NCBI GenBank assembly: GCA_046704425.1
Contig: JBJKRX010000018.1
Location: forward strand, 20,385 to 84,384
Source of the DNA: Nitrospirota bacterium
Lineage (GTDB): Bacteria > Nitrospirota > UBA9217
DNA length: 64,000 nucleotides
Reading direction: 5' to 3'
The translations under genes were made by a program, and so were the position numbers. This document shows, in pieces, positions 5,705-35,753 of this stretch (positions are counted from its first letter, which is position 1; every line of letters begins with the position of its first letter). Below the pieces are notes generated by a model. The model had not been told where the DNA came from and ran no database searches. It saw nothing but the letters and a program-made list of their open reading frames with translations.

Positions 5705-5755
5705 TGACCGTCTCCTTTTGCCCGCCGCCGATCGGCGCGGGCCCCGAGCGTGCAT

Positions 5756-5786
5756 ACAAAAAACCGGGAGAAAGGTCTCCCGGTTG
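5756..5786 (-). terminator. Rho-independent terminator after nrdJ
   Basis: On the minus strand the hairpin is CCGGGAGAccttTCTCCCGG, followed by TTTTTTG. Confidence 0.6.
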
Positions 5787-5855
5787 TCCGCTTCCTGTCC
5801 GCAGAACACTGTCCCTGTGCCGTCCGACAATCGGTTCCACACTGCCTCCGCACCG

Positions 5856-8213: not shown

Positions 8214-8357
8214 GTCACTCCCTCCTCCGGTGCAATATGGAAACCCTTCGAGTCCGCGCCGGCCTCACAGCCGGCATACCATGCCTGCGATGGTGATAAC
8301 AGCGGCCCCTGTCCTCCACACGGGGAGGGAGGATACCTTATTTAGTGGAACAGGGTA

Positions 8358-8387
8358 ATTATAGACACAATATCTTGTGCTTGTCAA
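8358..8387 (-). promoter_or_regulatory. nrdJ promoter (TTGACA-18-TATAAT) with NrdR-box-like palindrome in the spacer (plus-strand ACACAATATCTTGTGC at about 8365-8380)
   Basis: The -10 is a perfect TATAAT and the -35 is TTGACA. The 16-bp palindrome matches the NrdR box consensus acaCwAtATaTwGtgt at 14 of 16 positions. The leader is about 150 nt. Confidence 0.55.
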
Positions 8388-8548
8388 ACTATTTTTAAAA
8401 AAAGTATCGCGAAGAGAAAACTACAGAATAGGCTTATTTCATGCGGCGTTTCTGAGGGATACCCGCGTTCCGGATGCGCCAGATAAGGCGAAAATAAAAC
8501 AATGCTTGAAAACCGCAAGCCAGGCGCGCTCTTCCCGCCTCCCCTGTG

Positions 8549-8782
8549 CTACTGCGTCCGCGCTTTATGGCAGTACAGGCACTGTTCTTTCGGCGGATGC
8601 TTCGGGCGAAGGGGTTCCTTCCCCTGCGGTCCATGACATGCAAGACACGATGCGTTCGTTGCGGCGTTCCGATGCGCCGCATCGGCAGGCAGAAACGGGG
8701 CCTTCCGGCCGCGCGCGGAGAGGAAGAAGAGGAACACAAGGATGAGGACGACAGCAATCGGCAATCCGAGTTTTTTCAGCAT
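8549..8782 (-). CDS. Small membrane-anchored dihaem c-type cytochrome (77 aa)
   Basis: The product is MLKKLGLPIAVVLILVFLFFL (a transmembrane helix) followed by two CxxCH motifs (CLACH, CLYCH). GGGAG lies upstream of the ATG. Confidence 0.45.
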   Translation of the reverse strand: MLKKLGLPIAVVLILVFLFFLSARGRKAPFLPADAAHRNAATNASCLACHGPQGKEPLRPKHPPKEQCLYCHKARTQ

Positions 8783-8866
8783 GACGGGTCAGCTCCCGGG
8801 ACGATCGATCGCAGGCTGTTCCGCAGTTCGCAAATCGCCCCCGCCGCGCAGAACGGGGACAACGGA

Positions 8867-9673
8867 TCATTTGCTCAGTTCTTCGTAGGCCGTTGGCCGC
8901 CGGTTGGTGAGAAATCCCCAGGTGCGCATCGCTGCTTCGCGCTCAGCCGGATCGATATCTGCCATGACGATGGCCTCGGTGCCGCCTGCGCGCTCGGACG
9001 CAGGTTCTCCCCAGGGGTCGACGCAGAAGCTCCTGCCGTAAAAGGCGAGATCCCCCTCCTGCCCCACCCGGTTCACCCGAAAGAGGAACAGGTTGTTGGC
9101 AAAGGCACTCGCCGCAAGGGCGCGCTCCCAGAGCAGATGCGTGTCCTGCGAAGCGGCCGTGGGGGCAAGGACGATCTCTGCACCCCGCAGGGCCAGGATG
9201 CGCGCACCTTCGGGGAAAAGATTGTCCCAGCAGATCTGGATGCCGATCTTGCCCCGGGACGTTGCGAAGACCGGAAATCCTCCGTCGCCGGGGGAGAAGT
9301 AGAATTGCTCCCGGTAGTGGGGCAGGTCGGGAATATGGACCTTCCGGTACACGCCGAGCAGCCTGCCGTTGTCGAAGACCGCGGCGCTGTTGTAATAGTT
9401 CCCTGCTGCGGATTCAAAGAAGGGGACGACGAGGACGGTTTGCGAGGTTTCAGAAAAGCTGCGGAAGTCTTCCAGGGGCCCGTCCGCGACACCCTGTGCC
9501 AGCGAGAACAGCGACGGGTCTGCCTGCTCCGGGAACCAGGGCGTGAGAAACAGCGCCGGATAGCACAGGATGCCGGCACCTTTCTCGACGGCGACCGTGG
9601 CCATGTCGAGGGCGCGCTGGACATTGCGCTCCCGGTCCCTACCTGCGCTTATCTGGATGCCGGCGATTCGCAT
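8867..9673 (-). CDS. Carbon-nitrogen hydrolase family protein (nitrilase/amidase superfamily)
   Basis: The product begins MRIAGIQISAGRD and contains KIGIQICWDNLFPE. The layout is typical of a CN hydrolase with a Glu, Lys, Cys triad. Confidence 0.75.
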   Translation of the reverse strand: MRIAGIQISAGRDRERNVQRALDMATVAVEKGAGILCYPALFLTPWFPEQADPSLFSLAQGVADGPLEDFRSFSETSQTVLVVPFFESAAGNYYNSAAVFDNGRLLGVYRKVHIPDLPHYREQFYFSPGDGGFPVFATSRGKIGIQICWDNLFPEGARILALRGAEIVLAPTAASQDTHLLWERALAASAFANNLFLFRVNRVGQEGDLAFYGRSFCVDPWGEPASERAGGTEAIVMADIDPAEREAAMRTWGFLTNRRPTAYEELSK

Positions 9674-9706
9674 GGGAGGCCCCGGTGCAGACCGGGCAAG
9701 AGGACC

Positions 9707-12343
9707 TCACTTTCCATGACATTTTTTGTACTTCAAACCGCTGCCGCAGGGGCAGGGATCGTTGCGGCCGGTCTTTTTCCCGACGTGGACCGGAGCGGCC
9801 TTGACCGCGACCTCCTGCCCCCCGCCCGCGAAACTCAGGTTCGCCATCTGACGGCGCTGGCGACGCTCGATCTCCAGACCCTGCTCCTGGGCCGCCACCT
9901 TGATACGGAACAGGTTCTCGACCGTCGTCTCGACGATACGCTGCTTCATCTCCTCGAACATCTCGTACCCTTCCCGCTTATACTCGACAAGCGGGTCCAC
10001 CTGCCCGTAGCCGCGCAGGCCGATGCCGTCCTTCAGGTGGTCCATGGCCAGGAGGTGATCTTTCCAGAGATGATCGACTGCCTGGAGCATGAACACTTTC
10101 TCCAGGTGACGCACGACCTCGGCACCGATCTGCTCTTCTTTGGCTTCGTACTCGGCCTTGACCGCTTCCCAGAGGTTCCCGAGGAATTCTTCGCGTGCAA
10201 CCTTCTCGTGATCGGGCAGCGGCACCCGGAAGGAAAAGCGGGAGGTCAAGGCCTCGGAAAGACCGGTGATATCCCACTGCTCGGGGTAGGCGTCCATGGG
10301 GCAGTAGAGGTCGAACATGTCGTCGAGGAGCTGCTCCGCAAGGCCGAGCACGTCGTCCTTCAGGTCCCCGCCGGCCAGGATCTCACGCCGCTGCTCGTAG
10401 ATCACCTTGCGCTGCTGGTTCATGACGTCGTCGTATTCGAGCAGGTGCTTGCGAATATCGAAGTTGTGGTCTTCCACCTTCTTCTGGGCGTTCTCGATGG
10501 CGCGGGACACCATCCGGTGCTCGATCGGGACGTCCTCCTCCATGCCGAGCCGGCCCATGAGACCGGCGATGCGGTCGGAGCCGAAGATGCGCAGGAGATC
10601 GTCCTCCAGCGAAAGGTAGAACCGCGACGAACCCGGGTCGCCCTGACGGCCTGACCGGCCGCGGAGCTGGTTGTCGATCCGGCGGGACTCGTGCCGTTCC
10701 GTCCCCAGGATATGGAGCCCCCCGGCCGCAATGACCTTCTCTTTCTCCGCGGCGCACTGGGCCTGGAAGCGCTCGAGCGTCCGATCCCACTCGGCCTGAT
10801 CGAACTCCTTCCCCTTGAGGGCCTGACGCGTGAGTCCCTCGGGGTTGCCGCCGAGGATGATGTCGGTGCCGCGGCCCGCCATGTTCGTGGCGATCGTGAC
10901 CGCCCCGTAGCGACCTGCCTGGGCCACGATCTCCGCTTCCATCTCGTGATACTTGGCGTTCAGGACCGTGTGCTTGATCCCCTTTTTCTTGAGCATGGCC
11001 GCGAGCAGCTCGGACTTGGCGATGGAAATGGTCCCGACGAGGACCGGCTGCCCGTTCTTGTTTCGCTCCTCGATCTCCGCGATCGCGGCATGGAACTTCC
11101 CTTTTTCCGTCTTATAAATAAAATCGGGATTGTCCGCCCGGATCATGGGACGGTGAGTAGGGATCACGACAACGTCGAGATCGTAGATCTTGGCGAACTC
11201 CGCGGACTCGGTCTCCGCCGTGCCGGTCATGCCTGCGAGCTTATTGTAGAGGCGGAAGTAGTTCTGGAAAGTGATGGAAGCGAGGGTCTGGTTCTCGTTC
11301 TCGATCTTGACGCCTTCCTTGGCCTCGATCGCCTGATGCAGGCCGTCGCTCCAGCGCCTGCCCGGCATGAGCCTGCCGGTGAACTCGTCCACGATCATGA
11401 CTTCGCCGTCCTTGACCACATAGTCCACATCGCGGTGGAACAGGGCATGCGCCTTCAGCCCCTGGTGGACGTGGTGCACGAGATCGACGTTTGCGGGGTC
11501 GTAGAGGTTGCCGGCGTTCAGCAGGCGCTCGACTTTGATGTTGCCCTCTTCGGTCAGGGCCACCGTCTTGGTCTTCTCCTCGATCGTGAAATCCACGTCC
11601 TTTTTGAGGTTCGGGATGACGCGGTTGATCTTATAATACTTGTCGGTAGATTCCTCTGCGGGGCCCGAGATGATGAGCGGAGTGCGGGCCTCATCGATCA
11701 GGATCGAGTCCACCTCGTCCACGATGGCATAGTTCAGCTCGCGCTGCACGTATTCCGTGAGATCGAACTTCATATTGTCGCGTAGGTAATCGAAACCAAA
11801 CTCGTTGTTCGTCCCGTAGGTCACATCGGCGCCGTAGTTCTGCTGCCGTTCCTCGTCGGACAGGCCATGGACGATGATGCCCACCGTGAGCCCGAGGAAG
11901 GTATAGAGGGTTCCCATCCACTGCGCATCGCGGCGCGCCAGATAGTCGTTTACCGTTACGACGTGCACGCCCTTGCCGGACAGGGCGTTCAGATAGACCG
12001 GGAGTGTGGCGACCAGCGTCTTCCCTTCGCCGGTCTTCATCTCGGCGATCCGCCCCGTGTGGAGCACGATACCGCCGACCAGCTGCACGTCGAAGTGCCG
12101 CATCCCGAGCACCCGCTTCGACGCCTCGCGGACCGTGGCGAAGGCCTCAGGCAGGAGATCGTCGAGGGTCTCGCCCTCCGCAAGCCGCTTCCGGAATTCC
12201 ACGGTCCGGTTGCGCAGAGCTTCGTTCGAGAGGCCGGCCGCCTCCGGTTCCCGTTCGTTAATGCGATCGACGGTCTCCTGGATCCGTTTCAGCTCCCGGT
12301 CGTTCGCCGTTCCGAATATTTTCTTTATCACACCGCTGATCAT
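9707..12343 (-). CDS. secA: Preprotein translocase ATPase SecA
   Basis: The start was set at [20 protein letters not shown]. The product contains DEAD-like motifs and the C-terminal zinc site [23 protein letters not shown]. The RBS is GGGAGAG, and the ORF upstream of this start is discarded. Confidence 0.9.
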
Positions 12344-22574: not shown

Positions 22575-25500
22575 TCAATATTCTTTCCATAGCTCCAGCG
22601 CGTTCCGTGCAATGCGGAAGCCGATCTGCTGGAAGGCCGCGGCGTAGGCGCTCTCTGCGGCAGGCTCGTTGTTAATCGTTTCGATCAGGACCCGGGGGAG
22701 AGGGGTGAACTCGCGGAGCAGCATCTCCCTCAATACCATGCCGTAGTCCCGGAGCCGCGGATCCTCCGGGGCCGCCGGGATCTCGAGCGTCCTTCCGCGG
22801 CGCTTCACGATCATGACAAGCCTGCCCCCGTGGTACACGAGCGAGGTCGAAACAAGCCGCGGCGGAAGACCGGCAAAAGGAGCGAGCCCTAGTCCGCAGA
22901 GCGATGCCGGATCGGCAGCGTTCATCCAGAATACCGCGTCCGGCGGCAGCGGCTCCTGCAGCATGCGAAACGCCTCGTGCGAGACGAACTGCGGTCCGGA
23001 AATCCCCGCAAAGAAATAACCCGCAAGGACCTCGCCGGAAAGCTCCATTAACCGCAGGGAGCGAAAGAGAGCCCGCCACTGGAGCAGGGGGAGCTCGTTC
23101 TGCAGCAGCTCGCGGAACAGAATGCCGTAGCGCTTGAAAAGCTGCCGGATGCGGTCCTTCATCAGCTCTTCGTCTTCCAGAAGGTCCTGTTCCCGCTCAG
23201 GCGGATCGATCCGAAGCCAGTGCCCTTCCAACGGACGGGACAGCTTCCAGCGATTGAATCCGGACCTGCGCGAGGGCGGTCTCCCGGCATCACCGACGGC
23301 CCGGGCGGTGAACCCCGTGACGGCGCCCTGCCTGATCGTTCGGAACGAATCGCTCGTCACGTTCCCTTTCCAGGCCTCCTTCCACAGCAGTTCCGTGGCC
23401 CTGACCGTGTCCATGCGGGAGAGATCGATAATCTCCGAAAAACGATACTTGCCGCGCCGGTCGGGGATCAGGCGGGCAAGCTCGTCGTCGTGCTCTGCTG
23501 TCGCGTCGGGTGTGCGGAACAGTTCCAGGTCCTGGTGGAACGCGAGGCTGATGCGCTTCTGCCCGCAGCCGAACCAGACAAGATCGCTTTCGCTCATGAG
23601 CCTGTCCAACCATTCGCCCCGATAGGGCTTCATGCGGCTGGGCAGGAGGTGCTCTTCCCAGGCCGCAACAGGTGCGGGCCAGCCGAAGAGCTGTTCCAGG
23701 CGGTTCTGGAGGTCCTCCGGGGACTCCCCCCGGGGGGTGATGCCCTGGAAGGCTGCAAGAAAAAGCGGAAGCTGCTCAGGCAACAGGGCGGTGAAGGAGG
23801 GCCTCCGGTAGCGCCGCGCCATGCGAAGCAGCATCTCGAGATTTTCGCTGTCGCAGAGCTCGAGGGTCCCGCTCGCTTCGCCGAACCGGTCCAGGATGAG
23901 GTCCCCCGACTCGATCAGGGGTTCCACGGCCTCGTCCAGCCGCTCCGGGGTGACGCCGAGCAGGTGATGGAGCTGTTCCTTTCCGATGGGGCCGTAGTAG
24001 GCGAGAAAGCTCGCGAGGAACCCGGAGAGGTCGTACTCCTCGGGGATCGTCGTGCCTTTGCGAATGAAGCTTAGTGCCCTTCCTTTCGCGGTTTCGCCGG
24101 ATTCTTCTCGGGAAACCGGCGTTATGTGCAGATCCTCCGGGAGGAGCCGGAAGGCGACAAGGATCCTCGGCAGGCTTTCGAGGGCTGCGAGAAGAGGATG
24201 TGCGACCCCGGGCCAGGTCAGCCAGGCGAGCTTCTTCACCTGGGCATGGAGCCACGCAGCGGGATCGACGCCAATGTCTTGCCTGATCGCGACGGCAAGC
24301 TCCTTCCACTCAGGCTCGGGGATCAGCAGCCGCTCCTTCACCCAGTCGAGCAGTTCCCGGGGAGAGCCGGGCGCGTAGCCCGTTGCCGAACGCTTCAGCT
24401 TTTCGTCGAGGATGCGGAACAGCGCATCGGGGATCTTCGGACGCAGGTGCGGGGAGAACAGCAGTTCTTTGATCAGATCGGGCCGCAGGTTCGATCCTTT
24501 TGCCGTGAGCGGCGTGTCGTCTTCGTACATATACCTGTTCGTCTGCTTCCAGACGAGGTGGGAGGCGAAGGGAGAGGCGGCGCGCGTCACGGTCTCGCTT
24601 ACGGCGATCGAGCGATCGTGCAGGTCGTCGAGCACCTGCTTCAGGTTTGCGAGGTCGAATTCGTCCTCCAGACAGGTCCTCCAGGTCTCGATCAGGACCG
24701 GGAAGTCCTCATACCTGCGGATCGACTCGAGCAGCTCCTTGGACCGGAGCCTGATGAGCCAGAGCGGCATGCGGCGCTTGAAGCTTGCCTTGGGGAGGAG
24801 AAGCGCCCGCTCGGCGTTCTCCCGGAACCGGGCCCCGAAGAAGCCCGTCTGTTCCAGCTTCTTCCGAAGAAATCCTTCCACGTTCTCGGCGTTCAGGAGC
24901 CCGAGGACCTCCCCAGCCGCTGTCTCGCGCGGGAGCATGAGCAGAAGCGCGTCGTCTGCCTCGATCACCGAGAGCGGCGTGTGCTCGCGCTCTTCCCAGG
25001 CCTGGGAGAGGGCAAGCCCGAAGGGCCGGTTCACCCTTCCGCCCCAGAAGGTGTGGATGATCATCTGCCGCTGCTCGCCGCTACCAGCAGGCTCTTCGAG
25101 GTGTTCGATCAGGATATGGTGGCGGTGTGGCAGGCTTTGGCCGGTCGCCTCTTTCTGAAGCCTCAGGAACAGGACAAGCTCGTCGGCCGCGGTCTCTTCC
25201 ATGGCATGGCCTTGGATGAGCCCGGTCTTGAACGCCGGGTCGCCGAGCCGCTTGTCCGCATCTTCGAGGAACAGCCCGATCCGTTCGGAGAGGTGGAAGT
25301 CTCGGTTCAGTTCCTCCGCCTTCCAGAAAGGGAAGATGCCGGCAGCGGAATGTGCGGGAAGGACCTCCACGTCGTTCGGGGTGATCTTCTCGATCCGCCA
25401 GAGCTGCGATCCCAGGGTGAAGGTATCGCCGATGGACCGCTCCCAGACGAACTCTTCGTCGAGCTCGCCGATCTTGGCGCGCGAGTCCTTGAGCCGGAGA

Positions 25501-27032
25501 GCGAAGTAGCCCCGCTCGGGGATGGTCCCGCCCGACAGGGAGAGGAGATAGGCCGTCCCCTTCCCGGCATCTATCGTATTGTCGATTGCATCGATCGAGA
25601 TTCGCGGCTTGAGCTCCCGGAGCCTCGTATCCGCGTATCGGCCGGCCAGCATGTCGAGCACCAGGTCGAAATGCCTCCGCGGCAGCGCGCGATAGGGGTA
25701 CATGGTCCTGATGAAGGCGTACAGCTCGTCCATGTCCCAGCGTTCCCCGACGGTCATGGACAGGACGACCTGGGCCAGGAGGTCGAGCGGAGACTCCACG
25801 GGCCGCACTTCCTCGATGTCCTGGTCCAGCACGGCCCGCGCCATGACCGCCGCGTCCACGAAATCGCGTCCATGGAGCGGGAAGATCCTCCCGCGGCTCA
25901 CCGCGCTCACCGCGTGGCCGGAGCGTCCGACGCGCTGGAGGGCCGAGGACACGGCGCGCGGGGTCTGGATCAGGACCACCTCGTCCAGGCTCCCGATATC
26001 GATGCCCAGTTCGAGCGAGTTCGTCGCCACGATGGCCTTGAGTTCGCCGTTCTTCAGCTTCTGCTCCACTGCCAGCCGGATCTCGCGGCTGAGCGAGCCA
26101 TGGTGCGCATAGGCAAGCTCGTCCCCCGCTGTCTCGTTGATCATCCGGACGACCTTTTCCGTGGTTCGCCTGCTGTTCGCAAAGAACAGGGTCGAACGGC
26201 GTCGGGAGATGATCTCCCGGAACGCGTCGATCAGTGCCGGCCACCAGGAATCATCGGCCATCTTTTCCCGGGCATCGGCAGGAAAGGAAACGTTGAGCGC
26301 GTAGGACTTCCCGTGACTCGACCGGATGATCGCAACCGCCCGCTTTTCCGGGACGGCGTCCTGCCCGTTGCCGGTCCTGCGAAATCCGCCCACGAACGCC
26401 GCAACCCGCTCCGGGGGATTGATCGTGGCGGACAGGGCGATGCGCTGGAACTCGCCGGAGAGCAGAACGAGCCGTTCGACGGCAGTGATGAGATGGGTGC
26501 CCCGCTTTGACCCGACCACGGCGTGGATCTCGTCGAGGATCACGGCAGCGACGCCCGTGAGCATCGATCTGCCGCTCCGGGAGGCGAGAAGAAGGTTCAG
26601 GGATTCGGGCGTGGTGATCAGGATCTCCGGCGGCCTGCGGGCCATCTTCCGCCGTTCTTCGGCCGGCGTGTCGCCGCTCCGCGTGAGGACCGAGATCTCC
26701 GGAAACGGTTCGCCGGCCTTCGTGAAGGTATCCTGCAACTCGGCAAGGGGCTTGAGCAGGTTGCGCTGGACATCGTTGTTCAGCGCTTTGAGCGGGGAGA
26801 CATAGAGGACGCGCACCGTGCCTCGCGGCCAGGCACCGGTGATGAGCTGGTGCATGCCCCACAGGAATGCGGCCAGGGTCTTGCCGCAGCCAGTGGGCGC
26901 GGTCACGAGCACGTGGCTTCCCTGGACGATCGCGGGCCAGGCCTTTTCCTGGATGTCCGTCGGTTGCCCGACCGTTTCGCGGAACCACTGTTGGATCAGG
27001 GGATGGAACGATGACAGGGCGCTTGCCGTCAT
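22575..27032 (-). CDS. lhr: Lhr-family large ATP-dependent DNA helicase (1485 aa)
   Basis: The N-terminal superfamily-2 helicase region reads VLVTAPTGCGKTLAAF with DEIH, and the long C-terminal extension is typical of Lhr. Confidence 0.85.
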   Translation of the reverse strand: MTASALSSFHPLIQQWFRETVGQPTDIQEKAWPAIVQGSHVLVTAPTGCGKTLAAFLWGMHQLITGAWPRGTVRVLYVSPLKALNNDVQRNLLKPLAELQDTFTKAGEPFPEISVLTRSGDTPAEERRKMARRPPEILITTPESLNLLLASRSGRSMLTGVAAVILDEIHAVVGSKRGTHLITAVERLVLLSGEFQRIALSATINPPERVAAFVGGFRRTGNGQDAVPEKRAVAIIRSSHGKSYALNVSFPADAREKMADDSWWPALIDAFREIISRRRSTLFFANSRRTTEKVVRMINETAGDELAYAHHGSLSREIRLAVEQKLKNGELKAIVATNSLELGIDIGSLDEVVLIQTPRAVSSALQRVGRSGHAVSAVSRGRIFPLHGRDFVDAAVMARAVLDQDIEEVRPVESPLDLLAQVVLSMTVGERWDMDELYAFIRTMYPYRALPRRHFDLVLDMLAGRYADTRLRELKPRISIDAIDNTIDAGKGTAYLLSLSGGTIPERGYFALRLKDSRAKIGELDEEFVWERSIGDTFTLGSQLWRIEKITPNDVEVLPAHSAAGIFPFWKAEELNRDFHLSERIGLFLEDADKRLGDPAFKTGLIQGHAMEETAADELVLFLRLQKEATGQSLPHRHHILIEHLEEPAGSGEQRQMIIHTFWGGRVNRPFGLALSQAWEEREHTPLSVIEADDALLLMLPRETAAGEVLGLLNAENVEGFLRKKLEQTGFFGARFRENAERALLLPKASFKRRMPLWLIRLRSKELLESIRRYEDFPVLIETWRTCLEDEFDLANLKQVLDDLHDRSIAVSETVTRAASPFASHLVWKQTNRYMYEDDTPLTAKGSNLRPDLIKELLFSPHLRPKIPDALFRILDEKLKRSATGYAPGSPRELLDWVKERLLIPEPEWKELAVAIRQDIGVDPAAWLHAQVKKLAWLTWPGVAHPLLAALESLPRILVAFRLLPEDLHITPVSREESGETAKGRALSFIRKGTTIPEEYDLSGFLASFLAYYGPIGKEQLHHLLGVTPERLDEAVEPLIESGDLILDRFGEASGTLELCDSENLEMLLRMARRYRRPSFTALLPEQLPLFLAAFQGITPRGESPEDLQNRLEQLFGWPAPVAAWEEHLLPSRMKPYRGEWLDRLMSESDLVWFGCGQKRISLAFHQDLELFRTPDATAEHDDELARLIPDRRGKYRFSEIIDLSRMDTVRATELLWKEAWKGNVTSDSFRTIRQGAVTGFTARAVGDAGRPPSRRSGFNRWKLSRPLEGHWLRIDPPEREQDLLEDEELMKDRIRQLFKRYGILFRELLQNELPLLQWRALFRSLRLMELSGEVLAGYFFAGISGPQFVSHEAFRMLQEPLPPDAVFWMNAADPASLCGLGLAPFAGLPPRLVSTSLVYHGGRLVMIVKRRGRTLEIPAAPEDPRLRDYGMVLREMLLREFTPLPRVLIETINNEPAAESAYAAAFQQIGFRIARNALELWKEY

Positions 27033-27104: not shown

Positions 27105-27965
27105 TCACTGCAGAAACTCGTATTGCACGTCCGTGATCTTCCCCTTCCAGTACCGCTGCCGTCCCTGCGGCAGCAGCCATGCCGCTTCGCCCGCGCGGGG
27201 AGTTCGCATCCCGTCCTGTTCAACATAATCCCAGACGCGGACCTCCCAGGGGGTGAGCACGAATTTCCCTTCCACCTCCCGGTATCGGCCGGGAGAGGTG
27301 ATGTCCGTGACATCCCCCTGTTTATCGAAGTGGTATATCACGGAGACCGTCGTCTTTCCGTCCGTCAGGGTTGCGCGAGCGCTGGTCGCATCGATCGCGC
27401 TCCAGGTCACGCCCGCGCCCGGGATGAGGGCGGTGGGAAACCAGACCGCCTCGGCGAGATATCGCTGCAGGGAGCCGGAATTGAGCTCCTGGCCGCCCTT
27501 CTCATCAAAGACCGGAATCACACCGTTGGCCTCGGCCTCCATGGACCCCTTCCCGGCCTGGTAGCCGTCGCGCACGCGCAGTCGCATAAGGAGGGCCATA
27601 CGGATGTGGGCGTCCCAGACATACGCGGGTGGGGATGCGGTGAAGTGTTCCATTGCGGTAAAGGGACGCCACGCCTCGTTCTCCTGGCTCGTCAGGAACT
27701 CGCCCCCCTGACTCACCCGTGCCGTAAGGACGCAGGCCTGACCGTCCGTAAGTGCCCTGCGCAGGTATCGGGCGACCGGAGCAGGCAGGTGATCGAAATC
27801 CTTGAACGATACCGTTTTCACCTTGAGTCCTGCCGCTTCGTGCAGTTCCGCAACCATATCGGAGGTCATGCTGTTCCATTTGGCCGTCCCGATCCAGATG
27901 ATGACGCCGAAGACGATGGCGAACAAGATCGTAATGGCCAGTATAAGTCTCACCGCAATACGCAT
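27105..27965 (-). CDS. Hypothetical protein with N-terminal transmembrane anchor (family not recognised)
   Basis: The product begins MRIAVRLILAITILFAIVFGVIIWIG and continues into a beta-rich soluble region of about 250 aa. It is the last gene of the PilZ/HTH-Zn-ribbon operon. Confidence 0.45.
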   Translation of the reverse strand: MRIAVRLILAITILFAIVFGVIIWIGTAKWNSMTSDMVAELHEAAGLKVKTVSFKDFDHLPAPVARYLRRALTDGQACVLTARVSQGGEFLTSQENEAWRPFTAMEHFTASPPAYVWDAHIRMALLMRLRVRDGYQAGKGSMEAEANGVIPVFDEKGGQELNSGSLQRYLAEAVWFPTALIPGAGVTWSAIDATSARATLTDGKTTVSVIYHFDKQGDVTDITSPGRYREVEGKFVLTPWEVRVWDYVEQDGMRTPRAGEAAWLLPQGRQRYWKGKITDVQYEFLQ

Positions 27966-28002
27966 GTGCTCTCCTCAAGTGCGCGGAACCGGCTGCTCCG
28001 CG

Positions 28003-28335
28003 CTATCCTTGTCCCTCGATTCCGAACCGCGGCTCCCGGATCGATTCCCCCTTGCAGACCGGGCACCGGCCCGGCGTCTGCAATCGTCCCCGCTTGATGA
28101 AGAGAAAGCCGCACTTCCTGCATGTTGCCGACTCGACCACGAGATGCAATCCCGACGACGCAAGCGTCTTTTGAATATGTTCGAGGTGGCCGTATACCTC
28201 GCGCTCGGGGATCCGCACCGCGGCGGAAAGGTCCCGGGCGGAGCACGGTCCGTCGCGCAGGACGGCGATGATCTCCTGCCGCACCGTTTCCCTCGTTGCG
28301 ACAGGTACGCAGGGGGGCTTCGCTTTCCTGGCCAT
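28003..28335 (-). CDS. Predicted transcriptional regulator: HTH domain fused to C-terminal Zn-ribbon (COG3357-like)
   Basis: The product is MARKAKPP...TVRQEIIAVLRDGPCSARDLSAAVRIPEREVYGHLEHIQK followed by CRKCGF...CPVCKG. The start was set inside the longer track ORF. Confidence 0.5.
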   Translation of the reverse strand: MARKAKPPCVPVATRETVRQEIIAVLRDGPCSARDLSAAVRIPEREVYGHLEHIQKTLASSGLHLVVESATCRKCGFLFIKRGRLQTPGRCPVCKGESIREPRFGIEGQG

Positions 28336-28346
28336 CGCCGTTTTCC

Positions 28347-29036
28347 TCACGACGCCGGTCCGGCCTTTTTCCGCACAAAGTCCTCGATCGCCGCGGCATC
28401 CTCGGGCGCGACGGTCCCGAATTGCACCCCGTACTTGGCCTCGCCGGATGCGTTCGGAGGCGCGACCTTCCGTACGACCTTTCCGGCGACGGTAATCCGC
28501 TTGTGCCCAGGAAGAAAAAACGAGCAGGCCAGGCGGTCGCCGAGCGATAACGGCCGATCCGACTCGAGCAGCAGACCGGTGGCGCTGATATTCTCCGACC
28601 TGCAGAAAAACGACTTGTTCGCGTCGTCGCCGTTGAGGCTGACGCTCAGGAGAACGCGGTAACATCCGCGGGAGGGGATCGCGAGCAGGGCTTCGGCCTT
28701 TTCGACGAATTGGGCGCTGTTCACCGGGAGCGGGAACATCACGTTCGGCTTGCAGAGCGCGGCGCGTCCCAGCTCTCCGGGCCGGTTCCCGTGGTACAGA
28801 ATGATGGAAACCGCGCGCAGGGCCGCGTCATCACGGATGGTCCGAAAGATCTGCTCACATGCCGCCCCCGGCGCGTCCACCCGCGAGACGATGAGATTCA
28901 CTTTTTCCAGCCGGTGGACCGAGAGAATATCGTCGTTCGTTCTGGCCGTCAGAATCTTCACATCGGCGCGCTGGAAGATGCTTGCGTCTTTCGCAAGGAC
29001 GCTGCCGATCATGTCGTTGATGAGGATCTTCTTCAT
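28347..29036 (-). CDS. PilZ-domain c-di-GMP receptor with N-terminal receiver-like domain
   Basis: The PilZ motifs are RGCYR (RxxxR) and, about 20 aa later, ENISATG (D/NxSxxG). The N-terminal 120 aa resemble a CheY-like REC fold. Confidence 0.6.
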   Translation of the reverse strand: MKKILINDMIGSVLAKDASIFQRADVKILTARTNDDILSVHRLEKVNLIVSRVDAPGAACEQIFRTIRDDAALRAVSIILYHGNRPGELGRAALCKPNVMFPLPVNSAQFVEKAEALLAIPSRGCYRVLLSVSLNGDDANKSFFCRSENISATGLLLESDRPLSLGDRLACSFFLPGHKRITVAGKVVRKVAPPNASGEAKYGVQFGTVAPEDAAAIEDFVRKKAGPAS

Positions 29037-29182
29037 GGTCCGTCCGCTCCTGTCCGGATTTTCTCCTCCGCTCCTCTCGAGCGCAACCTACTATACCATA
29101 CTCCCCGGTGGAGCGGAAGACCTGTTGCGGCCCGTGGCTGTGCATGCTATAATCGCCCAGGCAAGGGGGAAAGGAGCGATCG

Positions 29183-30109
29183 ATGAGACTCGTTACGCGC
29201 GGCGACCTCGACGGATTGGTGGCGGCCGTCCTGATCACGACCATGGAGCCGGTGGGTTCTCTGGAGCTGATCCACCCGCAGGACATCACGGACGGGAAGT
29301 TCCCGGTCCGCGAAGGCGACATCCTGTCCAACCTCCCCTATCACCCTTCCTGCTCCCTCTGGTTCGACCACCACGAACTCACGGACAGCAATCCGAAACC
29401 GCCCCCGGTCTTCACGGGCAAACACGCCCTCTTGCCGAGCGTGGCGCGCGTGGTCTTCGATTACTACCACTCCGACAAGCTCGCCCGCTACGAACCGCTG
29501 ATCGCGGAAACGGACCGCTTCGACTCCGCCCGGCTCACGGCAGACGACATCTCCGATCCCCAGGGCGTGGTCCTGCTCGGCTTCACGATCGATCCGCGTA
29601 CGGGACTCGGCATCGACAAAGACATTTTTACGGGCCTCGTAGAATTGCTCAAGACCTCGTCCATGGACGCAGTCCTGGAGACTCCCGAGATCGCGCGCCG
29701 CATCCGACTCTGCCGGGAGAACGATCTCACGGCCCTGCAGACCTTGCAGGACTGTTCGCGTCTGGCGGGGAACGTGATCGTAACGGACTTCCGGACCGTC
29801 GCACAGCCGCCGATCGGCAATCGATTTCTCATCTATCTCGTCCATCCGGAAGGCAATGTGTCCGTGCGCGCCCAATGGGGACCGCAACGGGAGTTCGTTG
29901 CGATCACCGTGGGCCACAGCATCCTGAACCGGACCTGCACGACCGATATCGGCCGCCTGTGCAGCGACTTCGGGGGCGGCGGCCACCACGGCGCGGGAGG
30001 GTTCACGGTAGCACTGCAGGAAGCGAACCGGACACTGGACGCGGTGGTCAAACGGCTGCAGGAGGGGGAGGGACGGATCGCTCAGAAATACCAGTTGAGC
30101 GCCAGGTAG
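29183..30109 (+). CDS. DHH/DHHA1-family phosphoesterase (NrnA/DhhP-like)
   Basis: The product has DLDGL (motif I), WFDHH (the DHH motif) and the DHHA1 motif GGGGHHGAGGF. The RBS is AAGGAG, and the promoter reads TTGCGG-17-TATAAT. Confidence 0.7.
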   Translation: MRLVTRGDLDGLVAAVLITTMEPVGSLELIHPQDITDGKFPVREGDILSNLPYHPSCSLWFDHHELTDSNPKPPPVFTGKHALLPSVARVVFDYYHSDKLARYEPLIAETDRFDSARLTADDISDPQGVVLLGFTIDPRTGLGIDKDIFTGLVELLKTSSMDAVLETPEIARRIRLCRENDLTALQTLQDCSRLAGNVIVTDFRTVAQPPIGNRFLIYLVHPEGNVSVRAQWGPQREFVAITVGHSILNRTCTTDIGRLCSDFGGGGHHGAGGFTVALQEANRTLDAVVKRLQEGEGRIAQKYQLSAR

Positions 30110-31278
30110 GTGAGCTCCGGATAGAGCCCGAACTCGTTTCGCGGCGGCGCGCCTCCCGGTGATTGTCCCCCGATGCTCCGGTAGGCGCCGAGATGTGCGT
30201 AGAGGTTCTCCGAGGCATTGTACTCTACCGTGCCGGAAGCCAGGACGGACCCGTCCCCGAGGTTCACAAGCGCCTGGCCGCGCAGGGTGACGAGGGGGGT
30301 GAGCTCGTACCGGAGGCCGGGCGCGAGATAGTTCCTGCCCAGAAGGTACACCGCGCCCTCGGTGTAGGCCGTGCGCGTCGCGTTCGCGAGATACCCCGCA
30401 GGCCCTTTCGCCCCTGCGCCGTTGTAATGGTATTCCACGAACCCGGAGAGGGAAGAGACGAAGGTGTAATCCGCTCCAACGGATACTCGGGCGTAGCTGC
30501 CGTCGTTCGGGTCCTGCGGCAGGACCTCGGCTGCCTCGAACCACCCCCCTGCCCCGCCGATCGAGCGGGCGAGGCTCACGCCCACAAGGTCGTTCTCCCG
30601 GAATTCCATGGCCATGACGGACACGTCGGTTTGCCACGCCTCGGTCCGCATGCGCGCGAATGCCGCGCTCTGTCCCGCCTCGCAACGCCTCCCGCAGACA
30701 AGCCCCATGTCCAACTCCCCCAGAGAGCCGAAGGGCTTCTTGAACCGGACCGCGTCCACGCCCCGCAGTTCCTCCGTGGCGATGGTCGTAAAGGAAAAGG
30801 GGGCAAGGACATCGGTCGGATTCACCACGCGCGCGGTGCCGAAGGAGATCGGCTGCCTCCCGACGGTCAGATCGTACCCCGTTGCCCTGTGCACCACCAG
30901 GAAGCGGTCGAGGTTCTGATCGAGTTCGAACCCGCTGCCTGCGGGCGGTTCCTGGGGCTCAAGGCGTTCGCGGAGGTCATAGGCCCGATAGTCTCCCAGG
31001 GCAGCGGCAGGGAGCGGCCCTGCGGCATTCCCGTTCGTGCCCACGAGGCGAGGGACCAGTTCGTAGGCAGCCTCTGCGGAGGTGTCTGCGGACGCATCGG
31101 AACGGATCCGGATTCGGACGAGGGACAGGAGTTCCTGCGTGGTCACGCCGTCCTGCCGCGTCACGAGAGCGTAGTTCCTGAGAGACCCCGTGACACCTGC
31201 GGCGCTCGCCCGGATCGCTGCGGGTCCCAGGGCGAGCAGACAGGCGGCGAGTCCCGCGCCGAGTATCCGCCGCCGCAC
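30082..31278 (-). CDS. Predicted outer-membrane beta-barrel protein (signal peptide, C-terminal aromatic residue)
   Basis: The product begins MRRRILGAGLAACLLALGPAAIRASAAG and ends ...YLALNWYF. Its start overlaps the stop of the ABC ATPase gene. Confidence 0.45.
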   Translation of the reverse strand: MRRRILGAGLAACLLALGPAAIRASAAGVTGSLRNYALVTRQDGVTTQELLSLVRIRIRSDASADTSAEAAYELVPRLVGTNGNAAGPLPAAALGDYRAYDLRERLEPQEPPAGSGFELDQNLDRFLVVHRATGYDLTVGRQPISFGTARVVNPTDVLAPFSFTTIATEELRGVDAVRFKKPFGSLGELDMGLVCGRRCEAGQSAAFARMRTEAWQTDVSVMAMEFRENDLVGVSLARSIGGAGGWFEAAEVLPQDPNDGSYARVSVGADYTFVSSLSGFVEYHYNGAGAKGPAGYLANATRTAYTEGAVYLLGRNYLAPGLRYELTPLVTLRGQALVNLGDGSVLASGTVEYNASENLYAHLGAYRSIGGQSPGGAPPRNEFGLYPELTYLALNWYF

Positions 31279-31976
31279 TAGGCCGCCCCCCGGGTCTCGT
31301 CCGAGGCGATCTCGCCGTCCCGCAGCATCACGAGCCGCTTCGCCCGCTCCATGATCATGCCGTCATGGGTCGAAAAGACGAAGGTCATGCCGCGCGTCTC
31401 GTTCAGGGCATGCATCATGTCGAGCAGCGCGGTCCCGGTCGCGGAATCGAGGTTCGCCGTGGGCTCGTCCGCCAGGATGATGTCCGGACGCGAGGCCATG
31501 GCCCGTGCGATCGCCACGCGCTGCTGCTGCCCGCCGGAGAGCTGTTTCGGAAGCCGCTTCTCCATACCGCCGAGCCCCACGTCTTCCAGAAGGGCCGCCA
31601 CGCGCTCCTGCCGCTCGCGATCATCCACGCCCTGCAGCAGCATGATGTACTCGATGTTCTCGCGCACGGTAAGCACCGGGATGAGGTTGTACGACTGGAA
31701 GATGAAACCAATATGGTCCCGCCGGAAATCGGAGAGTTCCCTCCCCCGCATCTCGCTGATGGCCCTCCCCGCCAAAAGCGCGCGCCCCTGAGTCGGGACG
31801 TCGAGCCCGCTCATGATGTAGAGCAGCGTGGTCTTGCCGGACCCCGACGGGCCCGCAAGCGCGGCGAAAGAACCCGGCGCGATGGTCAGGTTCAGGTCCC
31901 GCAAGGCGTGCACCGGCACGCCGTCGGTATGGTAGACCTTCGAAACGTTCTCGATGCGGATGAGCTCGTCCGGCAT
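31278..31976 (-). CDS. lolD: ABC transporter ATP-binding protein (LolD/MacB-type)
   Basis: The product has Walker A (GPSGSGKTT), the signature LSGGQQQRVAIARA and Walker B (ILADEPT). The start was set at MPDELIRIENVSK. Confidence 0.8.
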   Translation of the reverse strand: MPDELIRIENVSKVYHTDGVPVHALRDLNLTIAPGSFAALAGPSGSGKTTLLYIMSGLDVPTQGRALLAGRAISEMRGRELSDFRRDHIGFIFQSYNLIPVLTVRENIEYIMLLQGVDDRERQERVAALLEDVGLGGMEKRLPKQLSGGQQQRVAIARAMASRPDIILADEPTANLDSATGTALLDMMHALNETRGMTFVFSTHDGMIMERAKRLVMLRDGEIASDETRGAA

Positions 31977-31996
31977 GGTTCTCCCTCCTGGGATGG

Positions 31997-33226
31997 CTAC
32001 ATGCTCCGCTGCATGGCCTTCGCGGGCAGGAGCCGCGCGGCGAAGATCGCGGGGTAGATCGCCGCGATCAGCGAAAAGACGCCGATGAGCAGCGGGTAGA
32101 GCGTGAACTGCCTGAGCCGGAACACGGGATAGAGCAGGTCGGTGATGGTCACGCCCGCAAACTCGATGCCCTGGTAATTGATCCCGAAGACGCCCACGAC
32201 CTTGATGATCAGCCAGCCGAGCGCCATGCCCCACAGGATGCTGATGAACGCAAGGGCCGCGGCCTCGAGGAAGATGATGAGCGCCATGTCAACGGGCCGG
32301 GTGCCGACGGCCCGGAGCACCCCGAACTCGAACATCCGTTCGTAGAGCGACATGAAGAGGGTGTTCATGATGATGACCGCCACGATCGCGAAGATGAGGC
32401 CCGTGACGATGGCCGTGGTCATGTCGCTCATCTCCACGACGCTCTGGAGCTGCTTCACGAGCTCTTTCCAGCCCAGGGCCTCGTTCCCGCCTTGGGAATA
32501 CTTCTTCCAGAACGGGAGCCGGGGATTGCCGGCGTCCTGCAGATGATGGAACCGGAGCGCGATCTCGTGCACGCCGCTGCCCAAGGCCAGGAGCCGCTGG
32601 GCCTCATGGATATTGATGAAGGCCGTCCCGCCGTCGAACTCCCGGATGCCCAGGTGGAAGATCCCCCCCACCCGGAACAGGTCCTGGGCGAGCGCGCCCG
32701 TGCCTGCCTCTGCCGTGGTCAGCACCACCCGGTCGCCCACGCCGACCTCGAGCAGCTCCGCCGTCTTGGAGCCGAGCAGGATCTTTCCGTCGTCTCCCGG
32801 CGCGAGCCACTGCCCCTGCCGGATCGCCTTGTCCACGATCGAGATGCGCGGCTCCGTCCGCGGGTCCACGCCGTACAGCATGACCGAGGCGACGCCGTTC
32901 GGCGAGCTCAGCATGGCAAAGGACAGGGTGCGGGGGGTGTAGGCCGCGATGCGCTTCTCCGTCGCCAGAGAGCGCAGGACCGCATCCGAATGGTGGATCA
33001 CGTCCTCCACGGCCATCGTCTCGCGGAATCCTGCTGCGTGGATCTCGCCCTGCCCCAGGAAGGTGTCGGTTGCCGTGCGGATCATGCTTTGCAGCATGCC
33101 GTCCAGCAGGCCGTCGATGAAGATCAGTGAGGCCAGACTGATGCCCACGGCAAGACCGGCCAGGATCGTCCGACGCTTGTTGCGCATCACGTTGCGCCAC
33201 GCAAGCTTGACGTAGAGGAGCTTCAT
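31997..33226 (-). CDS. lolE: FtsX-family ABC permease (LolE/LolC-like, 4 TM with periplasmic domain)
   Basis: The 409-aa ORF has a MacB/Lol-type periplasmic domain followed by C-terminal FtsX transmembrane helices. Confidence 0.75.
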   Translation of the reverse strand: MKLLYVKLAWRNVMRNKRRTILAGLAVGISLASLIFIDGLLDGMLQSMIRTATDTFLGQGEIHAAGFRETMAVEDVIHHSDAVLRSLATEKRIAAYTPRTLSFAMLSSPNGVASVMLYGVDPRTEPRISIVDKAIRQGQWLAPGDDGKILLGSKTAELLEVGVGDRVVLTTAEAGTGALAQDLFRVGGIFHLGIREFDGGTAFINIHEAQRLLALGSGVHEIALRFHHLQDAGNPRLPFWKKYSQGGNEALGWKELVKQLQSVVEMSDMTTAIVTGLIFAIVAVIIMNTLFMSLYERMFEFGVLRAVGTRPVDMALIIFLEAAALAFISILWGMALGWLIIKVVGVFGINYQGIEFAGVTITDLLYPVFRLRQFTLYPLLIGVFSLIAAIYPAIFAARLLPAKAMQRSM

Positions 33227-33227
33227 G

Positions 33228-34445
33228 TCAGTTGGACCTCAACGCCTTGACCGGGACGATGCGCGCCGCGCGCAGGGCGGGCCAGAGGCTCACCAGGACG
33301 GCTGCACCGAAGACCACCCCTGCGGGCAGCAGGATCGATTGGGTGGTGATCTGGGAAGTCATGGTGGTGAAGGCGAAGCCGCCGTACTCGATAGGCGAAG
33401 GATAGGAGATCCCGTGCAGGGAGAGCCACCAGTTCCCTGCCAGCCCGCAGAGCGTGCCTGCCACGATGCTGAGCACGGCCAGGAAGGCCGTCTCGAGCAC
33501 GATGAGCAGAAAGATCTGGGACGGCCGCGAGCCGAGCGCCTTCAGGATGCCGAACTCCCGGGTCCGTTCCAGGATCGCCATGAGCACGGTGTTCAGCACC
33601 CCGACCGCGATGATCACGGTCAGGACCGTCATGGTCCACCAGTTGCCTTTGATGTCCGCCTGCATGGCGGTATAGAACTCGCTCTCGATCACCTGCCAGG
33701 GTTCCACGTCGATCGACGGATCATGCAGGAGCGTCCGGATCTTGCCCACCGTTGCCTCGGTCTTCCGGTAATCATTGAGCACGACGACAAGCTCGTGCAC
33801 GCCGGTCGGCAGAGAGAGGAAGGAGCGCGCCGTTTCGATCGGCAGATAGCACTGGGACATGCCGGCGCCGCCCGTGTCCTCGCGCATGATCCCCGCGACG
33901 CGGAAGAGCCCGTTCGCGATCGACCCGTCCGCCCCCTCGGCGATCAGCGCAACCTCTCCGCCGAGTCCCACCTTGAGGGTCCGGGCCAGGTTGTGGCTCA
34001 GCACGATGCCCTTCGGTGCGTTCGCGGAAACGAACCGTCCCTCGCCGACATGGAGCGCCAGCCGAGTGGTCCGGGGCTCGCGGACCGGGTCGACGCCCAC
34101 GATGCGCGCGCCCGCGGTCCGGGTCCCGGCAAAGGCCAGGGCCGGGGAATAGATCCGGGGAGTCCAGGAACGGACCGCGGGCAGGGAAGCGATCTTCGCG
34201 CCCAGGGCGGTCGGGTGCTGCAGGACCTTGTAGAGCGTCGGCTTGTCGAGATAGCCCTTGGCGTGCACCTGGATGTGGCCGGTATGATCGCGCGTGAATC
34301 CGTCGATGATCGCGCCGTAACTGCCGGACACGAGCCCGAGCGAGATCGCAAAGAGCGCGCAACCGCCCGCCATCATAAGACCGGTCAGGAGGGACCGTGT
34401 CTTGCTCCGGAATATGTTGCGGAATGCGATCTTCGCCGTGACCAT
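33228..34445 (-). CDS. lolC: FtsX-family ABC permease (LolC/LolE-like)
   Basis: The 405-aa ORF is a paralogue of the adjacent permease. The product begins MVTAKIAFRNIFRSKTRSLL. Confidence 0.75.
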   Translation of the reverse strand: MVTAKIAFRNIFRSKTRSLLTGLMMAGGCALFAISLGLVSGSYGAIIDGFTRDHTGHIQVHAKGYLDKPTLYKVLQHPTALGAKIASLPAVRSWTPRIYSPALAFAGTRTAGARIVGVDPVREPRTTRLALHVGEGRFVSANAPKGIVLSHNLARTLKVGLGGEVALIAEGADGSIANGLFRVAGIMREDTGGAGMSQCYLPIETARSFLSLPTGVHELVVVLNDYRKTEATVGKIRTLLHDPSIDVEPWQVIESEFYTAMQADIKGNWWTMTVLTVIIAVGVLNTVLMAILERTREFGILKALGSRPSQIFLLIVLETAFLAVLSIVAGTLCGLAGNWWLSLHGISYPSPIEYGGFAFTTMTSQITTQSILLPAGVVFGAAVLVSLWPALRAARIVPVKALRSN

Positions 34446-34465
34446 GATCGGGGGCGGCAGCCGGT

Positions 34466-35227
34466 TCAGCGCTGCAGGTTCCTGAGCGTAAAGACGTCGG
34501 GCGGCAACGGGGCGTCGAATTGGAGCGTTCGGTAGCGGATGACGGTCTTTTTGTCCGGTGTGTGCAGGGGCCGCATCTCGAGCACCGACGGGATCCGCCG
34601 CTTCCCGAAGGTACGCACGTCGCTGAATTCCAGGACGCGTACGGCATCTCCCCGGTCGTCATAGTAGGTCTCGCGCACGGGCAGCAGGTCCGCCTTGCGC
34701 ACCTGGAGGATGATCTTGGCCCAGACGATGGCCATGTCTTTGTGCGGGGTGAGCTCGACGAAATAGTAGTCTTCGGGCCGCGGCCCTGCGGGGGTCGTGA
34801 GCTGGAATCGGTAGTCCCGGGTGAGCGAACTTTCCTTCACCAGGTCGTCGTTCGTGAAATCAGAGCCCATCCAGGAGCTCATCATCATGGAAGGAGGAAT
34901 CTTCATGACCCGGTCGATCTTGGGAAAGTAGTTCCACATCTCGTTCCCGATGCGGAGCGTGGCAATGCCCGCGTCCTTCCGGGGTGATCGGATGCGGATG
35001 AAGGACTTTTCCCTGCCTGCGGACCAGACGTCCATGGCGAGCGTGCGCGTCCAGTGCTTGGTCACGATGGTCATCTCCACCTCGCCCTGACTCGTGGCGC
35101 TGCGATAGAGGGTGTCTACGGAGTCCACGATGCGTTTCAGCGTTGCGTCGTCCTGCGCCCTGCAAGGGACCGCCGTCGCCGAAAGCAGGAGCAGCGCGAA
35201 GACCGTTGCGCCGATACGTCTCTTCAT
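34466..35227 (-). CDS. LolA-like outer-membrane lipoprotein-sorting protein family (periplasmic, signal peptide)
   Basis: The product begins MKRRIGATVFALLLLSATAVPCRA and continues into a LolA-like beta-barrel region (ATLRIGNEMWNYFPKIDRVMKIPPSMM). It is the first gene of the ABC operon. Confidence 0.6.
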   Translation of the reverse strand: MKRRIGATVFALLLLSATAVPCRAQDDATLKRIVDSVDTLYRSATSQGEVEMTIVTKHWTRTLAMDVWSAGREKSFIRIRSPRKDAGIATLRIGNEMWNYFPKIDRVMKIPPSMMMSSWMGSDFTNDDLVKESSLTRDYRFQLTTPAGPRPEDYYFVELTPHKDMAIVWAKIILQVRKADLLPVRETYYDDRGDAVRVLEFSDVRTFGKRRIPSVLEMRPLHTPDKKTVIRYRTLQFDAPLPPDVFTLRNLQR

Positions 35228-35261
35228 CCCTGCGCCCCCTCCCCGGGCCATCCCGGCCGGA

Positions 35262-35753
35262 TCACGGCCGCTGCCCGAACTTTCTGCGCACCTTGTCCGC
35301 CACAACCGGCGGCACCAGGCTGCTGATATCCCCGCCGTAACTCGCCGCCTCCTTCACGATCGTCGAGGTGATGAACGAATATTCCTCGCTCGGCATGAGG
35401 AAGACCGTCTCGATCTTGCTGTCGAGCCGCCGGTTCATGAGGGCCATCTGCATCTCGTATTCGAAGTCCGATACCGCGCGGAGGCCCCGGATGATGCCCA
35501 CGGCCCTGGTGCGCCGCACGTAGTCCACCAGGAGCCCGTCGAACCCCTCGATCCGCACCCGTTTCCGCAGCCGCGCGAGAGATTTCCGGAAGAGGTCGAT
35601 CCGTTCGTCGAGCGTGAAGAGCGGCTGCTTCCGCGGATTCGCAGCCACGGCCACGATCACCTCATCGAAGATCCGGAGGCTCCGCTCCACGAGGTCGATA
35701 TGCCCGTTCGTGACCGGATCGAAGGTCCCGGGATAGACCGCGATATGTTTCAT
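35262..35753 (-). CDS. coaD: Phosphopantetheine adenylyltransferase
   Basis: The product begins MKHIAVYPGTFDPVTNGHIDLVERS. Confidence 0.85.
   Translation of the reverse strand: MKHIAVYPGTFDPVTNGHIDLVERSLRIFDEVIVAVAANPRKQPLFTLDERIDLFRKSLARLRKRVRIEGFDGLLVDYVRRTRAVGIIRGLRAVSDFEYEMQMALMNRRLDSKIETVFLMPSEEYSFITSTIVKEAASYGGDISSLVPPVVADKVRRKFGQRP

Follow-up and report, generated by a model that had tools for sequence, protein, structure and literature searches.

In this study, we analysed 64,000 nt of genomic DNA from a Nitrospirota bacterium of the UBA9217 lineage (GenBank assembly GCA_046704425.1, contig JBJKRX010000018.1, positions 20,385 to 84,384), here called the window, and within it a locus at positions 27105–30109 where the gene for a predicted cyclic di-GMP (c-di-GMP) receptor lies back to back with that for a predicted pGpG hydrolase. 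The G+C content of the window is 58–67 %. The open reading frames (ORFs) and the raw sequence give three genes on the minus strand of the locus and one on the plus strand. The minus-strand run begins with a gene for a 229 aa protein in which a receiver-like (REC-like) domain is joined to a PilZ domain (28347–29036), continues with a gene of the COG3357 or PF0610 type for a 110 aa protein with a helix-turn-helix (HTH) and a zinc ribbon (28003–28335, starting at an internal ATG) and then reaches a gene of the DUF6544/DUF6920 type for a 286 aa membrane protein (27105–27965). The plus-strand gene (29183–30109) encodes a 308 aa DHH/DHHA1 protein of the PggH type, the predicted pGpG hydrolase (PDE-B). 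Each of the four genes is preceded, 6–10 nt upstream, by a GGAG-type ribosome-binding site. A longer ORF of 220 aa, starting at 28665, was considered for the PF0610-type gene and rejected as implausible, because 318 nt of it would fall within the PilZ gene. An earlier reading of this DNA, made from the sequence alone (the sequence-only reading), had placed the four genes at the same positions and given the divergent gap between the PilZ and PggH-like genes as 146 bp (29037–29182), and both points stand; its spacers of 12 and 38 nt came to 11 nt (PilZ/PF0610-type) and 37 nt (PF0610-type/DUF6544) when recounted. It had also joined all four genes into what looked like one second-messenger module for an unknown envelope function. 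We consider it probable instead that the locus is a mosaic, made up of a REC-PilZ/PggH pair, a PF0610-type gene and a block of DUF6544 and the helicase gene lhr.

The plus-strand protein matches no Pfam or NCBIfam model at E<0.1, though DHH and GGGH motifs are present. In a phmmer search its best match in the PDB was 7d62, the PggH protein of Vibrio cholerae (E 1.5e-57, 198 bits, residues 2–292), to which it is 36 % identical over 288 aa; the next DHH match in the PDB had an E value of 0.007, and NrnA/Rv2837c was reached at E 0.5 over some 30 residues around the GGGH motif only. The protein had earlier been described as an NrnA/DhhP-like DHH-DHHA1 enzyme, which is right for the superfamily but not for the subfamily, since by homology it is a PggH-type protein, and this type is distinct from NrnA within the same superfamily. 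PggH is the sole DHH/DHHA1 enzyme that has been demonstrated to be a pGpG-specific phosphodiesterase (PMC8861645). As hallmarks of this type one would look for an intertwined homodimer, in which the alpha-11 linker helix is rigid and the active-site cleft small, and for activity on pGpG but not on pApA, pApG, 5-mers, pAp, c-di-GMP or c-di-AMP. The residues of its Mn2+ site, D13, D15, N55, D67, H68, H69 and D121 (PMC8861645), correspond to D8, D10, N50, D62, H63, H64 and D114 in the window protein. Likewise R11, R146, N227, R228 and H282, which according to mutagenesis, isothermal titration calorimetry and docking hold pGpG and read its guanines (PMC8861645), are found here as R6, R139, N213, R214 and H268. 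All 12 of these metal-binding and substrate side chains are invariant across 14 aligned members of the family. The likeness to V. cholerae PggH (VCA0593; PDB 7D62; PMC8861645) is therefore one of full-length homology at a size of about 300 aa, with the metal ligands, the histidine of the GGGH motif and the guanine- and ribose-binding Arg/Asn/Arg set in common. Unlike the Vibrio enzyme, the protein described here comes from a Nitrospirota host, has Phe in place of G120, which in PggH makes a backbone contact, and is paired in one clade with a PilZ gene, a pairing so far without a described parallel in Vibrio. Judged by these residues, the enzyme most likely hydrolyses pGpG to two molecules of GMP.

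PggH has been called highly conserved only within Vibrio (PMC8861645). A search with the window protein returned 2,484 relatives at E<=1e-10, mostly from Nitrospirota, Acidobacteriota and metagenome-assembled genomes of the Desulfuromonas/Geobacter type. Most members of the family are stand-alone genes at unrelated loci.

The first gene of the minus-strand run had been described as a PilZ protein with a degenerate receiver-like N-terminal domain, a description that our data bear out. The PilZ domain (residues 123–222) scores 53.3 bits with Pfam PF07238 (3.7e-14), for which the cut-off is 22.5. Its RxxxR motif is R123-G-C-Y-R127 and its NxSxxG motif N149-I-S151-A-T-G154. The integrity of these motifs (RxxxR and DxSxxG) had been raised as a point to be checked; they are intact, and R123, R127, N149, S151 and G154 are invariant in alignments of 14 and of 37 homologues. 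Based on these motifs, the protein is predicted to bind c-di-GMP. Residues 1–118 have a CheY-like fold, with profile matches to the CheY, DivK and FrzS receivers at E values of 1e-5 to 1e-6. The AlphaFold2 model of the protein has a mean predicted local distance difference test score (pLDDT) of 85, and Foldseek led from it to the DivK, CheY and FrzS receivers, with target-normalized template-modelling scores of about 0.7–0.8 for DivK and CheY, and to the PilZ domain of MotI. We refer to the N-terminal domain as a pseudo-receiver, because in an alignment with CheY3 the position of the phospho-acceptor D57 is taken by R52 (R, Q, S, W or E within the family), the position of K109 is Leu and the positions of the acidic pair are not conserved. 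A receiver of this non-phosphorylatable kind is probably used as a surface for protein interaction or output. A comparable polypeptide is PixA of Myxococcus xanthus (PMC8316039), which likewise unites a CheY-like receiver with a PilZ domain whose motifs are intact; we do not claim sequence orthology, and the domain order is PilZ-REC in PixA and REC-PilZ here. PixA also keeps a phosphorylatable Asp180 (PMC8316039), whereas the window protein has Arg at that site and no equivalent of Lys109. In this respect its receiver resembles the non-phosphorylatable receiver of FrzS, a PDB match at 25 % identity. No solved structure joining a REC and a PilZ domain was found when the model was compared with the PDB by Foldseek. 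Tandem duplicates of REC-PilZ genes, with 38–41 % identity to the window protein, were seen at L013 (984–2313) and at L112–L115.

To follow what travels together with these genes, we compiled a set of 80 loci anchored on PggH-like genes, one per species, which were searched by tblastn with every neighbour from the window, and a set of 44 metagenome loci anchored on REC-PilZ genes. Among the 80 PggH-like loci, the REC-PilZ gene divergently adjoins the PggH-like gene in the three closest species only (L001–L003), and one of the 44 REC-PilZ loci (L082) has an intact PggH-like neighbour. At these four paired loci the identities are 71–77 % for PggH and 47–60 % for PilZ. The next-closest PggH-like genes (L004–L009, 65–71 % identity) have a different upstream neighbour in each case. 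The other 76 PggH-like genes were screened for PilZ ORFs at distances of up to 4 kb with a hidden Markov model of the PilZ half, built from 37 homologues, which gave nothing beyond a single marginal match at E 0.003. Clustering of the neighbours around PggH-like genes gave clade-level synteny only, and this analysis was noisy because of the spurious ORFs that come with high G+C. The pair is thus confined to one small Nitrospirota clade, that of the window and three further species; a decayed PggH gene is present in an additional lineage. Within this clade the pair has been kept through 23–29 % divergence of PggH and 40–53 % divergence of REC-PilZ, and in each genome examined other genes have taken over both outer flanks; the gene that follows PilZ codes for an M24 peptidase in L002, whereas in L003 it is a PIN-like gene. 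Transposase-like genes flank the pair in L002 (11109–11648 and 13491–14834) and in L003 (11610–13073), which fits a repeated turnover of the flanking genes. With regard to the expectation that the neighbourhood would be conserved in relatives, the divergent PilZ/PggH-like arrangement does recur in the closest ones, but the three-gene minus-strand run does not. The other check, on whether the DHH gene occurs at unrelated loci, came out largely against a module, as PggH-like genes are mostly found elsewhere and without PilZ.

A distant subclade of REC-PilZ genes (L088–L111, for example L101 at 5540–10450) has another context, shared by 10–13 loci, in which a polar-amino-acid ATP-binding cassette (ABC) transporter, made up of a fused binding protein-permease and an ATPase, is followed by REC-PilZ, a gene for a 148 aa protein and a thioredoxin-reductase-like (TrxB-like) flavoprotein gene. 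A link between REC-PilZ and the LolCDE-like ABC operon found upstream in the window was considered and rejected, since the ABC ATPases near REC-PilZ elsewhere belong to polar-amino-acid transporters, a different system.

The 146 bp gap was compared between the window and L001, L002, L003 and L082, which amount to four distinct sequences with L001 and L082 counted together. The intergenic regions of the paired loci align poorly outside two blocks. Block 1, TG[C/G]TATAATCG, lies 17 nt 3' of TTGCG/A; its TATAATCG core does not vary between the four distinct sequences, and its variable base is G in L003 but C in the other three, namely the window, L001/L082 and L002. In the window this block forms the extended -10 element TGCTATAAT of a putative PggH-like promoter (29145–29153, plus strand), which is preceded at a 17 nt spacer by a -35 element TTGCGG (29125–29130). 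Block 2, A[C/G]TATA[A/C/G]CATA, is conserved in the window and at L001, L002, L003 and L082 and reads TGnTATAGT/ACT on the opposite strand; here the intergenic alignment places the extended -10 element TGGTATAGT, in minus-strand reading, of a candidate REC-PilZ promoter at 29090–29098 (minus strand). Based on this pattern of conservation, we infer that REC-PilZ and the PggH-like gene each have their own extended -10 promoter and that the two promoters stand back to back; transcription would then start near 29160 (plus strand) and 29083 (minus strand). A generic sigma-70 scan gave no promoter in the gap, and the -10 boxes came from the cross-species conservation instead; the PggH-like promoter was missed by the scan because its -35 element is weak. 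A TGnTAnAnT element is present 38–46 nt 5' of the PggH-like ATG in 10 of 16 loci, including loci that lack PilZ. Its nearly constant position points to a short leader and to a stand-alone PggH-like promoter that is conserved. The box at a near-fixed distance from the start codon can be seen in L001–L006 and L009–L012, across many Nitrospirota genomes. No c-di-GMP riboswitch or other known RNA was found, as nowhere in the window did an Rfam family attain its gathering score.

The remaining two genes of the minus-strand run have histories of their own. The 110 aa protein had been assigned to the COG3357-type HTH plus zinc-ribbon regulators, and all comparisons agree with this: it matches PF21476 with 67.8 bits (cut-off 33, 1e-18), PF23470 with 46.5 bits (cut-off 26, 3e-12) and PDB entry 2gmg, the PF0610 protein of Pyrococcus furiosus, at E 5.6e-13, in an alignment that includes both CxxC pairs (CRKCG and CPVCK). 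As in the protein of P. furiosus (2GMG), a winged HTH is combined with a rubredoxin-like zinc ribbon with two CxxC pairs; unlike it, the window copy is bacterial. No PF0610-type homologue was present in any of 130 related loci, and a tblastn search of plasmids with the protein gave a single match, which was archaeal. Its place behind PilZ is peculiar to the window genome, and the conserved pair does not include it. A literature search on the function of COG3357, DUF6544 and DUF6920 returned nothing, and none of the papers searched names a target for the PF0610 family.

The 286 aa protein had been regarded as an unrecognized, membrane-anchored and beta-rich protein. The membrane anchor and the beta-rich fold are supported by its AlphaFold model (pLDDT 92), which shows a beta-barrel and, at the N terminus, a membrane helix, but the protein is no orphan: its Pfam families are DUF6544 and DUF6920 (about 1e-71), and a search at E<=1e-10 yielded 1,261 relatives. 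With high confidence the model predicts a membrane-anchored open beta-barrel fold like that of LolA and LolB. Identity to members of the LolA/LolB superfamily (3BK5, 'putative outer membrane lipoprotein-sorting protein'; LolB 1IWM and 9TPM) is 5–11 %, and the protein differs in its anchor, which is an N-terminal transmembrane helix, whereas LolA and LolB are free in the periplasm or held by a lipid anchor. The minus-strand run also extends beyond 27105, which the sequence-only reading had left out: 72 nt past the DUF6544 gene starts a gene for a large Lhr-type helicase of 1485 aa (22575–27032, minus strand), with the Pfam domains DEAD, Helicase_C, WH_Lhr, DEAD_assoc, WH3_Lhr and WH4_Lhr. In all four relatives with at least 54 % identity to the DUF6544 protein (L126–L129), its gene lies directly 5' of lhr, as in the window, and neither PilZ nor PF0610 stands beside it; a relative with 45 % identity has no lhr downstream. 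Downstream of the DUF6544 stop codon there is a weak terminator-like hairpin (27103–27080), at a frequency that equals chance expectation. No function common to the DUF6544 protein and LolA/LolB is obvious, because the conserved neighbour Lhr is a cytoplasmic helicase. That a lipid-carrier fold of the periplasmic type should be paired with a DNA/RNA helicase of the cytoplasm is puzzling.

By analogy with PggH, the PggH-like enzyme would turn pGpG, the linear product of EAL phosphodiesterases, into GMP and so complete the turnover of c-di-GMP. The removal of pGpG would relieve the product inhibition of EAL phosphodiesterases; REC-PilZ would bind c-di-GMP and signal through the surface of its non-phosphorylatable receiver. 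The co-inheritance of the two genes in one clade hints at a coupling of signal sensing and signal termination. We keep this coupling as a hypothesis because of the single origin of the pairing, the PggH pseudogenes beside intact REC-PilZ genes and the independent promoter of the PggH-like gene. The following may go further: PggH-type hydrolases could be widespread, dedicated second-step c-di-GMP phosphodiesterases in Nitrospirota, Acidobacteriota and related anaerobes, which in one clade have become coupled through back-to-back promoters to a REC-PilZ protein that senses c-di-GMP and tunes pGpG clearance or EAL feedback, so that the pair would be an undescribed receptor-terminator cassette. 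We regard this extended version as speculative and rather doubtful.

Several explanations of the locus have to be weighed. The proposal that PilZ, PF0610 and the membrane protein form an operon which acts together with the DHH enzyme as a four-gene c-di-GMP module for an envelope function could draw on the tight spacers of 11 and 37 nt, on the lack of a terminator-like hairpin between the three genes, on the LolA/LolB-like fold, which would suit the handling of envelope lipids or lipoproteins, and on the LolA_like/MacB-type ABC operon close by (30082–35305). Because of these spacers and the lack of a hairpin, the three minus-strand genes are indeed likely to be co-transcribed here. However, homologues of PF0610 and DUF6544 were found by tblastn in none of the 80 PggH-like and none of the 44 REC-PilZ loci, the closest PilZ orthologues precede unrelated genes (those for the M24 peptidase and the PIN-like protein), and the close relatives of the DUF6544 gene precede lhr and lack PilZ and PF0610 neighbours. 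A conserved module of four genes is therefore very improbable, and the shared transcript likely reflects local packing rather than an inherited functional unit. The PF0610-type gene may be linked to a neighbour elsewhere, as the surveyed loci were anchored on other genes. Overall, the earlier idea is partly supported, in that a clade-restricted pair of a receptor and a pGpG hydrolase is present, with unrelated genes packed alongside.

The pair itself may be questioned on two grounds, and the following observations weigh against our interpretation of it. In a neighbour-joining tree the four PggH genes that are paired with PilZ form one clade, which implies that the pairing arose once and could be retained synteny without functional meaning. 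Three loci (L083–L085) carry a frameshifted and internally deleted PggH-like remnant that lacks the DHH motif, divergent to an intact REC-PilZ gene (L083, 7278–7832), and this decay shows that the receptor does not need PggH. The same type of PggH-like promoter occurs at loci without PilZ, from which it follows that the PggH-like gene is an independent transcription unit. Together with the 76 of 80 PggH-like loci that have no PilZ nearby and have varying neighbours, and with the amino-acid ABC and TrxB-like context that is conserved in the other REC-PilZ subclade, these data would suit an incidental adjacency, in which the PggH-like protein is a stand-alone housekeeping hydrolase of dinucleotides or pGpG and REC-PilZ its neighbour by inherited order. 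What speaks against it is that the pair has survived replaced flanks over the divergence given above and that both proteins would act in one signalling pathway, which is unlikely for random neighbours; on balance, an incidental adjacency is possible but, in our view, not the likely explanation. The other ground concerns the substrate. The DHH protein could be a general nanoRNase or dinucleotidase, an exopolyphosphatase or a pAp phosphatase, and its pGpG specificity is a prediction made at just 36 % identity to PggH. Its relatives bear the public names 'exopolyphosphatase', 'nanoRNase/pAp phosphatase' and 'NrnB/cAMP/cGMP phosphodiesterase' or are listed as hypothetical, and the substrate preference of stand-alone DHH-DHHA1 proteins is hard to predict from annotation (PMC10570053). 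We consider a broader or different specificity unlikely, since the pGpG-binding residues R11, R146, N227, R228 and H282 are all retained and do not vary within the family, no other characterized DHH enzyme matches better than E 0.007, and the public names are automatic ones with no NCBIfam or Pfam model behind them. The relatives appear currently to be mislabelled. The mosaic, with its REC-PilZ/PggH pair as the signalling part, is hence the interpretation that we prefer.

Some further features of the surroundings may be added. A gene with a GGDEF or EAL domain was found near the PggH-like gene in four of the 80 loci (1.19 Mb), a number that is too small and comes without a background rate; it hints at a looser link of PggH-like genes to c-di-GMP metabolism. 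In L002 (11720–13204), L011 (about 11268–11738) and L029 (about 9839–10303) a GGDEF or GGDEF-EAL gene is no more than about 1.5 kb away, and in L078 there is one at about 6 kb. In the window, a gene for a GAF-GGDEF diguanylate cyclase is present at 60709–61854 (plus strand), some 30 kb away from the pair. A GGDEF/EAL/HD-GYP motif screen of the long window ORFs brought up no other gene for making c-di-GMP; of the ORFs flagged, this one alone was checked against Pfam. Next to the PggH-like gene, an apparent operon on the minus strand (30082–35305) encodes a LolA_like protein (PF17131), two MacB_PCD/FtsX permeases, an ABC ATPase and a protein of 398 aa. The latter has a signal-peptide-like start, no Pfam match and the C-terminal residues NWYF, and is possibly an outer-membrane barrel. 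The last gene of this operon converges on the PggH-like gene and overlaps its 3' end by 28 nt.

What is new here is a distant member of the PggH family with a clade-limited PilZ pairing, not a new system, and the four-gene envelope module does not hold. A build-up of pGpG feeds back on EAL phosphodiesterases and hence on c-di-GMP levels, and the disposal of pGpG in bacteria without Orn is understood only in part. PggH has been described as essentially restricted to Vibrio, and the relative reported here, from a sulfate-reducer-like Nitrospirota bacterium, has all the published catalytic and guanine-reading residues. A re-annotation of the more than 2,400 PggH-like sequences that are now listed as 'exopolyphosphatase', 'nanoRNase' or hypothetical would be useful, and the pairing with PilZ in one clade provides a testable hint that a c-di-GMP receptor and the enzyme that terminates the signal may be coupled.

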